Part shown: positions 4,957 through 9,273 of the stretch, piece by piece
Layout of the letters: each line of letters starts with the position of its first letter
Position numbering within the stretch: position 1 is the stretch's first letter
Source of the DNA: Candidatus Hodarchaeota archaeon
Lineage (GTDB): Archaea > Asgardarchaeota > Heimdallarchaeia > Hodarchaeales > Hodarchaeaceae
DNA length: 11,083 nucleotides
Assembly (NCBI GenBank): GCA_016839815.1
Contig: JAEOTM010000021.1
Span: 1 to 11,083, forward strand
Reading direction: 5' to 3'
Position numbers and translations under genes: made by a program
The notes under the pieces: model-generated
Seen by the model: only the letters and a program-made list of their open reading frames with translations
Database searches by the model: none
What the model was told of the DNA's origin: nothing

Positions 4957-5061
4957 ATACACTAAATAAATGACATAATGCACACCTTCATTATATGAGG
5001 GGAATCTTTGGCATAAATAGGACATAATACACAGAGGAGCTTGTGTTCACACCCGAATTTG

Positions 5062-6198
5062 ATGTCTGACAACCCTTTAGGTGAGATAAATTTGTCAGAA
5101 CCTGACGATACAGCTAAAGAAAGAATTCTTCAAAAAATTCAGTTAAAAGAAACACTTGGTAGAATATCTGAAAACTTTCAAGATTACCTTTTCGATTGTG
5201 TTGAAGCTGAGACTGGTCAAAGACCCCGTGTTTTCGCAATTAATGATGTATCTCGTGTGAAAAAATTTGGACGAACGGGTTCTGTTGATCTTATCTCCGT
5301 CCTCTTTGGAACTGATGTGGGCCAGCAGTCTGCAAAAATTGCGGTTAAATTCTTCCGATCTGGTTCTTTGGAAGAGCCCCAAGAGGAAGCTCGGAAATCG
5401 CGAATTCTTCAATGGCGTTTTGACAGTCGGGATCCTCCGGTTCCCAATACAAAAACTCCAAAGATCCTGTATGCTGGCTCTAAATCTGCATTTCTTGTTT
5501 ACGAAGGTATTGATGGATACTCGTATGCCGATGCTAATATTCCAAATGAGACAAAAGCCTTTCTAGTAGGCAGAGCGTTAGCAGCTATTCACGGGCCAGA
5601 ACTTGGAAATATCGAATTAGAGCGATACGAAGGTCTTGTGGCGATTTCAACAATCCAACTTCCTGGAGCGAGCTCACAATTAAAAGATATTTTTCTTAAC
5701 CTGTTTGGGAAGCACTTGAAAGTGTTAAAGGAATCTCCTGGTGGTACTACTCCTTTCGGTGATCTCCATGATGGAAATATCCTTTTTTCACAACAATCTT
5801 CTGATGAAGTTACTCCTGAAAATGTAATTACCTGGATAATCGATCCCGAATATCTGGAAGAGACATCTGGTGTGTCTCGGATCGAAGACGTTGGAGTATT
5901 CTTTTCAATTTTCTTTTACGAGGAATTTGAGAATACGAATGATATTTCTGAAACTGTAAATCATTTTAAACACTTTATTCGCGGTTATGATGGTGTTCTT
6001 CAGACGTGGGGGGCTCCTAGTCTAAGTGAAATCTACCCTAATGGAATACCAATTAATTTTGATGTTAGTTTAGCTCTTCTCGTTGAGGGGATAGATCTCA
6101 TGAAACGTTATGGTGTCACTGAACATACAAAGACTCAATACAAAAAGCGAGTGAAATTTGCTCTAAAACTTCTAAATGAGGATTTGATCCAGCTTTGA
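5062..6198 (+). CDS. Protein-kinase-like phosphotransferase (APH/choline kinase family)
   Basis: IAVKFF (beta-3 Lys), helix-C Glu (QEEA), TPKILY, LVYEGIDG hinge, GRALAAIH, catalytic loop FGDLHDGNIL, metal-binding WIIDPE and downstream EDVG. Alternative start TTG 5041. Confidence 0.85.
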   Translation: MSDNPLGEINLSEPDDTAKERILQKIQLKETLGRISENFQDYLFDCVEAETGQRPRVFAINDVSRVKKFGRTGSVDLISVLFGTDVGQQSAKIAVKFFRSGSLEEPQEEARKSRILQWRFDSRDPPVPNTKTPKILYAGSKSAFLVYEGIDGYSYADANIPNETKAFLVGRALAAIHGPELGNIELERYEGLVAISTIQLPGASSQLKDIFLNLFGKHLKVLKESPGGTTPFGDLHDGNILFSQQSSDEVTPENVITWIIDPEYLEETSGVSRIEDVGVFFSIFFYEEFENTNDISETVNHFKHFIRGYDGVLQTWGAPSLSEIYPNGIPINFDVSLALLVEGIDLMKRYGVTEHTKTQYKKRVKFALKLLNEDLIQL

Positions 6199-6319: not shown

Positions 6320-7063
6320 TTGTTCAGTGAGGAAGAAATCAAAGACTACTTTCAAAGTGGATTCTATGAGAACTACTATGGATGGCGTTTTACAGAGGAT
6401 GAATCCCGAAGAGAAGCGGATCAAATACTTGAATTATTGAACGCGAAAGAAGGTCATATTTTGGATTGGTGTGGAGGCTGGGGTAGGCATTCACTTTATT
6501 TTGCAAAAAAGGGGTTTCAAGTAACAATATTGGATTATATCCGAAAATATCTTGATTTAGCAAAAAAGAGATTCAACGAAAACGGCCTTTTGGTTTCTAC
6601 CATAGAATCTGACTGCCGAGATACCCCATCGAAGGTTCAGGCCGATTTTGGGACATGTTTGCTTAATAGTATTGGGCTTCTAAAAAAATCTGAGCAATTA
6701 AAGGCTTTTATAAGTCTTAATAATGCCTTAAAGCCGGGTGCTAAAATTATTATTGATTGTATGAATCTTCTCGCAATAAAACAATTCATAAAGACAACAG
6801 AGAGATCTGGGAAGGATGGCAGCATTTACAGATCCTACAAGAGGTTTGATTTTCGAGAAAATGTAGAATATATGGTCTTTGAGATCATCAAACCAAATGG
6901 TGAAATACAAAGAAAGGAATTCACCCAGATGCATTTTACCCCTTACGACCTTAGTGAGTTAGTTGAAAAGGCTGGTTTTCAGATTGATGACATATTTGGA
7001 AATTTTGAAGGCGACCCAATATCCTTTGACTCGACAAAGATTATTCTTATAGCTCAAAAATGA
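6320..7063 (+). CDS. Class I SAM-dependent methyltransferase
   Basis: Motif I ILDWCGGWGRH, acidic end of beta-2 (VTILD), SDCRD, LKPGAKIIID and C-terminal AGF..FGNF typical of Methyltransf_25-type enzymes. GAGGA RBS before the TTG. Confidence 0.9.
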   Translation: MFSEEEIKDYFQSGFYENYYGWRFTEDESRREADQILELLNAKEGHILDWCGGWGRHSLYFAKKGFQVTILDYIRKYLDLAKKRFNENGLLVSTIESDCRDTPSKVQADFGTCLLNSIGLLKKSEQLKAFISLNNALKPGAKIIIDCMNLLAIKQFIKTTERSGKDGSIYRSYKRFDFRENVEYMVFEIIKPNGEIQRKEFTQMHFTPYDLSELVEKAGFQIDDIFGNFEGDPISFDSTKIILIAQK

Positions 7064-7160: not shown

Positions 7161-8453
7161 TTGCAACAGAAGAACAATATTCGTCAAAAACAAGAGAAAA
7201 CGTCAAAAATTGCAATTCTTGCTCCAATTATCTTTTTTCTTGTGATTTATAGTTTAATCGCGGTTGGAACCTCCAACTTAAGGCCTCTCGAAGTTGTAAT
7301 GTCCCCCAGTATGGCCCCATCCTATGAAGTAGGGGATCTGATCCTTGTACGTACGGTTGATCCGGCAGATCTTCAGATTGGTGATGTAATTATATATGAA
7401 ATTGATTATGGTTATATTCAAGAAAGAATTCTTCATCAAGTCTGGAATATTACAATTATTGATGAAGAGCGATATTTTGCACTTTATGGAGAGATGAACA
7501 GTAGACCAGATGTTCATAAAACTGCTCGAGACGTTATCCACGTACCAACTTATGATGTAAATGGTAGACGCATCATTATTTCACTTGTCCCTGACAAAAC
7601 GATTCAGGGACAAGTTATTTATAGAATCCCATACCTTGGATGGCCGATTGCGATCTTGATTTCATTCTATGGGTTTTTCTCATTAATTTTTGTGGCCACC
7701 CTACTTTATTGGATGTTATATGGGAGAATAACTTTCTCAAAGATTAAAGGATTGGGTAGTCTAGCGGTCGCGGGTATAATTATTATTATCTTACTCCAAG
7801 TATTTAGTTGGAGTGATGGTAGGGTCGTAGAATCTATTGAACTTTCAAAAAATGAATTTGGAGGCTCTATTGAACCTGGAGAGAGTGCGGAATATATTGT
7901 TTTAGGTGAAACGAAACAAATCTGGGGACCCACATATCCAACTAATGGCACAATAGGAGTTCAAGTCCTGACAAAATATCCTCAAAATATGACTATTCTG
8001 TTGAATAAGAATGTCCGCCAATGGAATGGTACAACAATTGAGGATTTAAATTACACCGAAGTCCTTGTTATTGATCAAATCGGATTAGTTATTGCTTCAA
8101 ATCGAGTAAGTTCTGAATACCTGGGATTTTATTTTCCATTTATTACTTCAGTGCAGGATAGCTATATTACTGTGGATGCATTTGCATATTCAACTCGGCT
8201 TACACCAGACGGAATTATCGGTGAAGAAACGTTACAGTTTGTCCAAGATATGCAGAAATGGGATTTCTATGTACGATATAAGTTTGCAGAACCGGGATTT
8301 CTTATTAAATATGAATATCATGTAGTTGTTCATCCCTATGTACGTCCTCATCTGTTATTCATTGCTATTGCTTTCGTATTCATAGGTTTAGGGTATTGGA
8401 AAGTCGATCGTACTCCGTTTTTCTGGAAGAAAAATGAAATTCTCGAAGAATAA
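7161..8453 (+). CDS. Signal peptidase I, archaeal/ER type (S26B, Sec11-like), with long C-terminal membrane and extracellular extension
   Basis: N-terminal TM (aa 17-36), box B VVMSPSMAP (Ser50), GDL, GDVIIY, box D ILHQV (His92), box E GEMNSRPD (Asp117) and RIPYLGW. Two further TMs, a roughly 180-aa domain with four N-x-T sequons and a C-terminal TM follow. Confidence 0.87.
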   Translation: MQQKNNIRQKQEKTSKIAILAPIIFFLVIYSLIAVGTSNLRPLEVVMSPSMAPSYEVGDLILVRTVDPADLQIGDVIIYEIDYGYIQERILHQVWNITIIDEERYFALYGEMNSRPDVHKTARDVIHVPTYDVNGRRIIISLVPDKTIQGQVIYRIPYLGWPIAILISFYGFFSLIFVATLLYWMLYGRITFSKIKGLGSLAVAGIIIIILLQVFSWSDGRVVESIELSKNEFGGSIEPGESAEYIVLGETKQIWGPTYPTNGTIGVQVLTKYPQNMTILLNKNVRQWNGTTIEDLNYTEVLVIDQIGLVIASNRVSSEYLGFYFPFITSVQDSYITVDAFAYSTRLTPDGIIGEETLQFVQDMQKWDFYVRYKFAEPGFLIKYEYHVVVHPYVRPHLLFIAIAFVFIGLGYWKVDRTPFFWKKNEILEE

Positions 8454-8496
8454 TGTTTTTAAGTCCATACTGTGGATAAATAAATAGGTAGATAGT

Positions 8497-8634
8497 ATGG
8501 CAACTATTGGATCTCATAAGTTTACACTGCCTGTAAGTACGAGTCTTCTCATTGGAATGGGATTAGTTCTCGCACTAGCAGCACTCTTGGCGACCGGGGC
8601 TCTTGGTGCTACAATGATCCCAAAACCCCTTTAG
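8497..8634 (+). CDS. Unannotated 45-aa hydrophobic signal-peptide-like micropeptide MATIGSHKFTLPVSTSLLIGMGLVLALAALLATGALGATMIPKPL
   Basis: ATG 8497 to TAG 8634, translated by hand (below the ORF track cutoff). AGGTAG RBS-like motif upstream, TTTTTAAG TATA-like element at 8456-8463, visibly more GC-rich than its flanks, one clear hydrophobic helix, and a T9 tract just after the stop. Confidence 0.75.
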   Translation: MATIGSHKFTLPVSTSLLIGMGLVLALAALLATGALGATMIPKPL

Positions 8635-8643
8635 GTCGTCCAC

Positions 8644-8685
8644 TTTTTTTTTGATTTTCTTTCTTATTTATTGGTTTTGTTTTTT
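8644..8685 (+). terminator. Archaeal oligo-T terminator
   Basis: T9 run at 8644-8652 followed by further T tracts, beginning 10 nt after the micropeptide stop. Confidence 0.65.
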
Positions 8686-9015
8686 GTGATCTAAGAATCT
8701 TTTATAAATTAAAATATATCTTGCCGACTTCTTATTTGTATATTCACTAGAAATATGATAATCTCTTTTCTAATATTTTATGGCCAAATAATAAAAATTT
8801 AGGTACCTTTAAATAGGGTAACCGGCTGGTTGCTTGTATCCTGTTGCCTAAGAGATTGGTGGCAGATCAAATTATTGTTATCTATTTTCGATTTAATGAC
8901 CTATTGAATCGCCTGTGAAGTCCCTTATGGGTTGTTTGGAAACTATTTATGACGTATTCGCGTGTGAGATGAGATATTCGCAGATATGTTGTATGTTAGG
9001 CTAGGAGGTCAATTC

Positions 9016-9273
9016 ATGAAACTTAATAAAATCATGTTTAACTGTTCCAGCTGCAATGCAGTACTCTCAATTACCGATCAAGGCGGAGGCCATCATAATA
9101 TTGACACATTGTGTCCCACTTGTGGCCGAAAATTCTTTATTAATCTTTATTTGACCGGTGGATTACTGAAGATTGAAGTAAACGCTGATGGGGATTTGTA
9201 TGATTCCCCACAATTGAAACAAACTTATGGTAGTCGAGCACTTTCTATTCCAAAATATAAGAAAAAACGCTGA
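9016..9273 (+). CDS. Small zinc-ribbon protein (CxxC...CxxC) with basic C-terminal tail
   Basis: CSSC and CPTC knuckles. A strong GGAGGT RBS at 9004-9009 favours ATG 9016 over 8986. Tail PKYKKKR. Confidence 0.75.
   Translation: MKLNKIMFNCSSCNAVLSITDQGGGHHNIDTLCPTCGRKFFINLYLTGGLLKIEVNADGDLYDSPQLKQTYGSRALSIPKYKKKR

Follow-up and report, generated by a model that had tools for sequence, protein, structure and literature searches.

We describe a pair of adjacent genes in Asgard archaea that encode an accessory signal peptidase of the S26B (Sec11/ER) type and a conserved micropeptide of 45 to 49 amino acids. The two genes recur together in 3 deep lineages and are very probably paired in function in some way. 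Our best reading, to which we give a probability of roughly one in three, is that the pair is a two-gene processing cassette that would release the short C-terminal tail of the micropeptide as a signal. The stretch of DNA analyzed (the window) has 11,083 nucleotides, and the features of the pair within it are collected in Table 1.

In bacteria and eukaryotes, signalling by peptides is well established, whereas in archaea it is, to our knowledge, barely documented. The pair thus offers a heterologously testable, two-gene candidate for peptide signalling in Asgard lineages, close relatives of eukaryotes, and it comes with a predicted cut site, a catalytic mutant, and exact product masses. If the reading is true, it would show how a Sec11 enzyme gains a private substrate specificity and would bear on the question of why archaea retain extra Sec11 paralogues. 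The hosts are known from metagenomes only, and the accessory peptidase, and with it the pair, is rare (4 of the 400 Asgard genomes searched). A literature search that left most subscription journals outside found no signal peptidase dedicated to a micropeptide in archaea, in agreement with the earlier reading made from the sequence alone (the sequence-only reading), which knew of no description of such a module.

Table 1. Positions in the window of the peptidase gene, the micropeptide gene, and their predicted signals.
Feature	Positions	Strand	Basis
Accessory S26B (Sec11/ER-type) signal peptidase, 430 aa, TTG start	7161..8453	+	TIGR02228, SEC11A/C profile matches, hydropathy
Predicted catalytic triad Ser50 (7308-7310), His92 (7434-7436), Asp117 (7509-7511)	7308..7511	+	alignment and invariance
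Subfamily-specific all-beta domain, residues 217-395, between TM3 and TM4	7809..8345	+	profile searches
TATA-like T-run TTTTTAAG after a purine-rich stretch	8456..8463	+	recurrence upstream
RBS-like motif AGGTAGA	8486..8492	+	GAGG[TC]TGAT in four homologues
45-aa micropeptide	8497..8634	+	homologue alignment, coding signature
RNA hairpin, final 14 codons plus stop	8590..8639	+	pairing in 7 sequences
Predicted cleavage site A35-L36-G37 (8599-8607) and tail ATMIPKPL (8608-8631)	8599..8631	+	-3/-1 rule
T9 run, terminator-like	8644..8652	+	T-run past the stop in all clade-1 loci

The peptidase and the micropeptide occur together in three lineages

The accessory peptidases fall into 3 lineages that are 21-30% identical to each other, and each lineage carries a 45- to 49-aa hydrophobic micropeptide within 21-360 nt of the peptidase gene on the same strand. 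In clade 1, to which the window belongs, the micropeptide lies 37-75 nt downstream of the peptidase, with homologues in this place at the loci L019 (from the genome G397), L021, L022, L023, L027, and L028. In clade 2 (G022, L150), in which the enzyme has 500 aa, a 49-aa hydrophobic ORF is found about 340-360 nt upstream, between a gene for an SMC-like ATPase and the peptidase. In clade 3 (G023, L216; 488-aa enzyme), the micropeptide lies 21 nt upstream, past DNA methyltransferase genes. Altogether, a micropeptide stands beside the accessory peptidase in 10 of 10 assessable loci. Locus P0010 was left out of this count because its contig begins 83 nt before the gene, and the L150 peptide was read by hand because an upstream Met had caused the motif scan to miss it. 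Since the loci within each clade are related, the independent evidence amounts to 3 lineages and not 10.

No micropeptide of this type was present at about 60 other Sec11 loci, and none was found without the accessory peptidase in the 400 Asgard genomes. The linkage of the small ORF to this peptidase subfamily, on which the sequence-only reading had staked its proposal, was thus borne out: the ORF was found solely beside members of the subfamily, and this across 3 deep lineages and in different contexts. Weak micropeptide matches in G015, G030, G129, G271, and four f31 genomes were spurious, as they lay within other genes, and no viral copy was found. The neighbourhood comparison revealed no further neighbour gene common to the clades. 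A search of G397 for the SMC-like neighbour of clade 2 gave no match, and the Zn-ribbon neighbours of clades 1 and 3, considered as a common gene, bear no detectable relation to each other.

All 10 peptides contain an alternating [FW]-x-L-x-[VL] stretch, a single hydrophobic helix, an [AV]-L-G box, and a tail that begins with a small residue and is 8 residues long in clade 1 and 6 in the other clades. This motif, which was defined post hoc from sequences already seen, matched 1 of the bin's 7412 small ORFs, and within the 885 kb of loci fetched it occurred only beside accessory peptidases. A profile built from clade-2 peptides only retrieved the clade-3 peptide with an E value of 2e-4. With a profile of clade-1 peptides only, the clade-2 peptide ranked 12th among 2025 small ORFs, at a non-significant E value of 1.5. 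The clade-1 peptide profile matched solely its own cluster among 1.84 billion representatives. Homology of the clade-1 peptide to those of clades 2 and 3 is no more than suggestive, judged from these profiles and the common motif. The micropeptide genes also share their stop codon, which is TAG in 10 of 10 cases versus 4 of 45 long ORFs at the same loci. Pyrrolysine read-through of this common TAG was considered and rejected: no PylS scored over the cut-off in G000, G022, G023, or G397, and the read-through frames are not conserved.

These data bear on the simplest alternative, namely that the 2 genes are independent neighbours, the linkage in clade 1 being ordinary synteny and the ORFs of clades 2 and 3 unrelated look-alikes. 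A whole gene block is indeed common to the clade-1 loci, the small gene has a promoter-like element of its own, the motif is post hoc, and the clade-1 profile does not reach clade 2 significantly. However, the clade-2 profile does find the clade-3 peptide, the peptide stays within 21-360 nt of the peptidase and on its strand in 3 differing contexts and was not found without it in the 400 genomes, and TAG is used throughout. We consider chance neighbourhood very improbable.

The peptidase belongs to a rare accessory subfamily

The 430-aa product scored 66.8 bits against TIGR02228 (cut-off 51.85) in the family-model search and its profile matched human SEC11A/C (best E 4e-13), and it missed the SipW cut-off (NF046067, 30.4 versus 190 bits). 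Hydropathy predicts 4 membrane helices (at about residues 17-35, 163-181, 197-215, and 388-415). By alignment to the structure 7p2p, S50, H92, and D117 correspond to Ser56, His96, and Asp122 of human SEC11A, and these 3 residues are invariant across 11 accessory peptidase sequences, from which catalysis by the accessory enzyme is predicted. The database gene call P0001 (380 aa) begins the peptidase at Met51 and so loses the catalytic Ser50; the TTG at 7161, also seen as start in L021, L022, and L027, is probably the true one.

In human SEC11A, D122 is catalytic, and R97-D116 is structural (bioRxiv 10.1101/2020.11.11.378711). The Arg97-Asp116 pair corresponds to Gln93 and Glu111 in the window peptidase. 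Clade 1 has Gln or Met at position 93 and Glu111, and hence no Arg-Asp bridge, whereas clades 2 and 3 retain HR and GD. Because the human D116 mutant retains activity (bioRxiv 10.1101/2020.11.11.378711), the loss of the bridge in clade 1 does not exclude catalysis. The sequence-only reading had called the peptidase atypical. This description holds for its C-terminal domain and for the changes of HR to HQ and of KGD to YGE, but not for its length, since the housekeeping Sec11 proteins of the class are mostly open frames of about 335-430 aa.

As judged from profile comparisons, the subfamily is marked by its fourth helix and by an all-beta domain with the motif L-x-F-[VI]-Q-D-[ML], which probably sits outside the cell because it bears many N-glycosylation sequons. 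Profile searches found this domain in all 3 clades (E 1e-5 to 1e-7). A profile of the clade-1 C-terminal region reached clade 2 (E between 7e-7 and 3e-5) and none of the housekeeping Sec11 below E 0.5, and a profile of clades 1 and 2 detected the clade-3 enzyme, which had been left out of it, at E 1.4e-6, the next match being at 0.015. The catalytic domains of the subfamily also cluster in a tree (96/68, long branches). The domain is present in 3 of the 400 Asgard genomes, the G023 contig ending before it. Its structure model is a beta-meander with a pLDDT of 59 (the full-length model is poor, pLDDT 44). With this model, the best match in the fold search was VIA (Z 6.6, rmsd 3.7 over 106 residues), no Foldseek match had an E value below 0.001, Atlas TM scores by query stayed below 0.5, and Atlas feature matches were all below 0.85. 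A lipocalin, DUF3108, or LolA-like fold was considered, and the searches gave generic beta-meander matches only.

G397 and G023 each encode a second, ordinary Sec11 besides the accessory enzyme. In G022, which is 85% complete, the accessory Sec11 is the only one above the cut-off. The housekeeping Sec11 of G023 (L148:976-1200, G023:C678) is frameshifted near the catalytic serine, probably through an assembly error. The housekeeping Sec11 proteins of the class (e.g., L031:1720-2745) have a conserved extra membrane helix and a beta-rich C-terminal domain of ~130 aa of their own, which is homologous across families (HHalign 91-98% for most pairs) and was rejected as being the same as the outer domain (HHalign probability <1%). 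Their layout is reminiscent of eukaryotic SPC22/23, for which Pfam gave no supporting match.

The micropeptide gene is conserved and has putative signals of its own

The sequence-only reading had proposed the small ORF 43 nt past the peptidase stop, together with its TATA-like box, RBS-like motif, and T9 run, and all of these were confirmed in place, as were H7, K8, and the hydrophobic core of the product. It had also described the ORF as unannotated. Gene callers do call it in related assemblies, and no family is assigned to it there. The ORF is 73-80% identical in 6 other loci, its NG86 dN/dS against these homologues is about 0.1-0.3, and pairwise base differences concentrate at codon position 3 (350; positions 1 and 2 have 157 and 58). 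This conservation, on which the proposal of the earlier reading depended, indicates a protein-coding gene that is probably translated. The product, which has no Pfam or NCBIfam match, begins with an n-region (residues 1-16) that contains an alternating F-x-L-x-V strand, followed by a single hydrophobic helix and an 8-aa tail.

The element TTTTTAA occurs 34-45 nt before the ATG in 7 of 7 clade-1 loci, with similar elements in clades 2 and 3, and is a putative promoter element of the small gene. The T-run TTTTTAAG may also terminate the peptidase transcript. Since the small gene thus apparently has its own promoter and terminator, the level of the peptide could be set independently of the enzyme.

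In clade 1 only, the 3' end of the gene can fold into an RNA hairpin in which GCGACC pairs with GGTCGY and inner Gly codons pair with Pro codons. All cells (100%) are paired in the 7 clade-1 sequences, the wobble pair of Gly34 and Pro44 takes 3 forms (G-C, A-U, and U-A) at synonymous sites, and the G of the TAG stop (8632-8634 in the window) is itself base-paired. The covariation is modest evidence, as it comes from a single covarying pair in related sequences. The hairpin is not evident in clades 2 and 3, and Rfam contains no credible match to it. Because of this pairing, some invariant Gly and Pro residues may reflect RNA structure.

Cleavage is predicted after Gly37

A manual n/h/c layout and the -3/-1 rule both fit a signal peptide in the micropeptide. 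The rule alone permits several sites in the window peptide, of which the sequence-only reading had proposed 2. The cut after A35-L36-G37 fits all 10 peptides, while the alternative after T33-G34-A35 does not, since it would demand Val at -1 after Pro in clade 2. A cut one residue past Gly37 is disfavoured because it would place Pro at +1 in L022 and L028. All 10 peptides have [AV]-L-G followed by A, S, or T, with Pro never at +1, which singles out the cut after Gly37. From the known specificity of signal peptidases, we consider it probable that the micropeptide is cleaved, the predicted site being this one. Modelling of the peptide in complex with the catalytic region scored 0.16 (mark 0.32) and was counted neither for nor against cleavage.

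The predicted tails are mostly hydrophobic and vary between lineages (ATMIPKPL in the window and SFQLPT, AFSWSI, and AAQYLR elsewhere), and no tail residue is common across the clades. In clade 1, residues 28-37 are 100% invariant, and conservation is 80-85% over residues 1-37, 86-89% in the n-region, and 64% in the tail, versus 72-76% in the catalytic domain of the peptidase. In clade 2, 37 of 43 leader residues are identical but only 1 of 6 tail residues, the enzymes being 52% identical.

Possible functions of the micropeptide

How the released-signal cassette might work can be outlined as follows. The micropeptide would span the membrane once, its N-terminus facing the cytoplasm and its short C-terminus the exterior. 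The accessory Sec11 would recognize the conserved leader and cut after Ala35-Leu36-Gly37, setting free outside the cell a peptide of 6-8 residues, whose output could be separated from that of the enzyme by the predicted promoter and terminator of the small gene. In the least certain step, the tail would serve as a signal between cells, detected either by a receptor whose gene lies elsewhere or by the outer beta domain of the peptidase itself. We place this reading first because a conserved leader with a variable core (37/43 versus 1/6 in clade 2, 85% versus 64% in clade 1) is the pattern of signal precursors, and because the size is like that of RRNPP propeptides. In size and layout the micropeptides resemble propeptides of bacteria, which have 21-50 aa and carry the signal in their final 4-10 residues (PMC10075063). 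The pairing in every assessable locus, with the peptide gene upstream in 2 clades and downstream in 1, the invariant -3/-1 box together with the small residue at +1, and the second, ordinary Sec11 of G397 and G023 also speak for it. Against it, genes for TPR proteins, histidine kinases, or transporters are not conserved next to the pair, the tails of different clades have no residue in common, the RNA hairpin and not protein function may be what keeps Pro42 and Pro44 invariant in clade 1, G022 shows only the accessory Sec11, and the cytoplasmic n-region is about as conserved as the catalytic domain or more, which goes beyond what a disposable leader needs. Taken further, the pair could tentatively be seen as a pheromone-production module of Asgard archaea, in which a Sec11 paralogue with a new outer domain releases, and perhaps senses, a lineage-specific signal of 6-8 residues cut from a precursor that consists almost wholly of signal peptide. 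With similar reserve, such a module might be regarded as an archaeal counterpart of AgrBD or Phr logic built on an ER-type peptidase.

The strong conservation of the leader is what one would expect if the same cut served the opposite end, the product being the membrane-embedded part of 37-43 residues and the tail being discarded. This part could be a small membrane or filament subunit, the cut could serve to ligate the acyl-enzyme to an acceptor, or, after the site-1 cut, an intramembrane protease could free the cytoplasmic strand as a regulator. Residues 1-37, and the n-region above all, exceed the catalytic domain in conservation, the inner-side [FW]-x-L-x-[VL] strand is kept in all clades, the clade-2 tail is almost free to vary, the promoter and structured 3' end would suit an abundant product, and TrhF/TraF set a precedent for tail removal (PMC12037004). 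However, a conserved leader with a variable core is usual for signal precursors too, a single helix with its ends on opposite faces makes head-to-tail cyclisation implausible, no class III pilin cleavage motif is present, and the nearby annotation is without conjugation or pilus assembly genes; we regard this possibility as rather unlikely. Linkage and high conservation would be accounted for equally well if the micropeptide remained uncut, either as a partner of the peptidase that crosses the membrane once (as a small accessory subunit, a pseudo-substrate inhibitor, or a stabilizer), loosely resembling the small subunits of the eukaryotic signal peptidase complex, or as a self-oligomerizing microprotein. 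Its helix contains small-xxx-small packing motifs, and a peptidase that has lost the core Arg-Asp bridge may require a stabilizer. Yet only one C-terminal element is strictly invariant in every clade, namely an ideal -3/-1 box that is followed by a small residue at +1, the enzyme retains its triad, and there is no Pfam or NCBIfam match to signal peptidase complex subunits, which makes an uncut partner unlikely.

A different set of genes on one strand was observed in G044 (L218:4120-7844; G044:C206, L111). It comprises genes for a 46-aa precursor that carries a signal peptide and a tail with two Cys, a 72-aa ORF, a second Sec11, which has 340 aa and lacks the accessory domain, and a regulator of 753 aa with receiver-GAF-TrmB architecture. 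This cassette, known as one sequence type only, is a possible peptide-signalling operon, and by analogy its regulator hints at a signalling role for the accessory pair.

Comparison with known systems

In its predicted mode of action the pair resembles SipW-TasA and TraF-TrbC, and in appearance the micropeptide resembles an RRNPP propeptide; a defining trait of each of these systems is lacking. With archaeal and ER-type signal peptidase I (MEROPS S26B; Sec11, TIGR02228), the enzyme shares the boxes, the triad, and the N-terminal anchor, and like the dispensable paralogue Sec11a of Haloferax volcanii (PMC6098224) it is a second copy beside a housekeeping enzyme. Unlike an ordinary Sec11, it has 4 helices, an outer beta domain of 180 aa that belongs to no recognized family, a fixed micropeptide partner, and, in clade 1, a replaced Arg-Asp core bridge. 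The tapA-sipW-tasA operon of Bacillus subtilis likewise places an ER-type peptidase beside a substrate with a cognate signal peptide (PMC9245690), but the mature domains of TasA and TapA are large and folded, whereas the mature part predicted here has 6-8 residues and no family match.

In IncP TraF/TrbC and IncH TrhF/TrhA, an S26-family enzyme also acts with a small hydrophobic substrate (PMC12037004). These enzymes trim 4-5 residues from the pilins, removing a short C-terminal tail that starts with Ala, as predicted here (PMC12037004). Their pilins, however, are hairpins of about 70 residues with both ends on one side and are encoded in conjugation operons (PMC12037004), whereas the micropeptide has one helix. 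No conjugation (T4SS) operon was found at the pair, the annotated neighbours being a kinase-like protein, CinA, methyltransferases, an SMC-like ATPase, and a nitroreductase. The head-to-tail cyclisation after the model of TraF/TrbC that the sequence-only reading had raised is accordingly unlikely, because the single membrane helix splits the ends across the membrane and conjugation genes are lacking nearby. The RRNPP propeptides (Phr, PapR, NprX, AimP) resemble the micropeptides in their basic start, hydrophobic core, and released C-terminal residues, and the 45-49 aa of the latter fall within the 10-100 aa range of that family (PMC10075063). There, the neighbour is a TPR receptor of 250-500 aa and general peptidases make the cut (PMC10075063), whereas here the neighbour is the peptidase. 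The direct neighbours of the pair gave no match to a TPR receptor in any clade.

In AgrB-AgrD and ComQ-ComX, too, a dedicated processing enzyme of the membrane is encoded next to its precursor, which has ~45-55 aa and yields a variable mature peptide, and receptor-less agrBD loci, with enzyme and precursor only, exist in clostridia. Their enzymes are unrelated to Sec11, AgrB being a thiolactone-forming peptidase and ComQ a prenyltransferase. The accessory-pair tails differ in having no conserved Cys or Trp.

Origin of the contig and gene neighbourhood

The window corresponds to the complete contig C121, which belongs to an Asgard bin (G000) of 4.2 Mb with 7.8% contamination. The genes that C121 shares with a contig of G397 (the MAG b1.sp2_bin.26, which its depositors labelled Ca. 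Heimdallarchaeota) are 49-74% identical to those of G397, versus 21-43% to the bin's own paralogues or to the genus. In tetranucleotide use, C121 is the second most deviant of 35 contigs of similar size and closest to the G397 locus; another contig, C119, is similar to it in composition. G397 is the sole family member among the 400 genomes and lies outside the bin's class. C121 is probably misbinned and comes from a rarer Asgard lineage, so the genus of the bin was not taken as a comparison and absence from its 21 genomes was not counted.

In other Asgard families, two-helix ORFs of 71-76 aa adjoin Sec11 (L177:1179-1394, L178:939-1169), and the one in L177 resembles the oligosaccharyltransferase subunit Ost5 (E 4e-4, below the cut-off). 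Downstream of the pair, a zinc-ribbon gene (8986-9273; 85-95 aa) is about 65% conserved in clade 1 and was not found in the 4 other Asgard genomes tested. Upstream, an APH/kinase-like gene (5041-6198), of a family with 1-3 copies in all genus genomes, directly precedes the peptidase in the 6 clade-1 relatives and is not beside it in clades 2 and 3; only in the window does an SAM methyltransferase gene (6320-7063) stand between the two. Since the micropeptide is rich in Ser and Thr, its modification by the APH/kinase-like product is conceivable.
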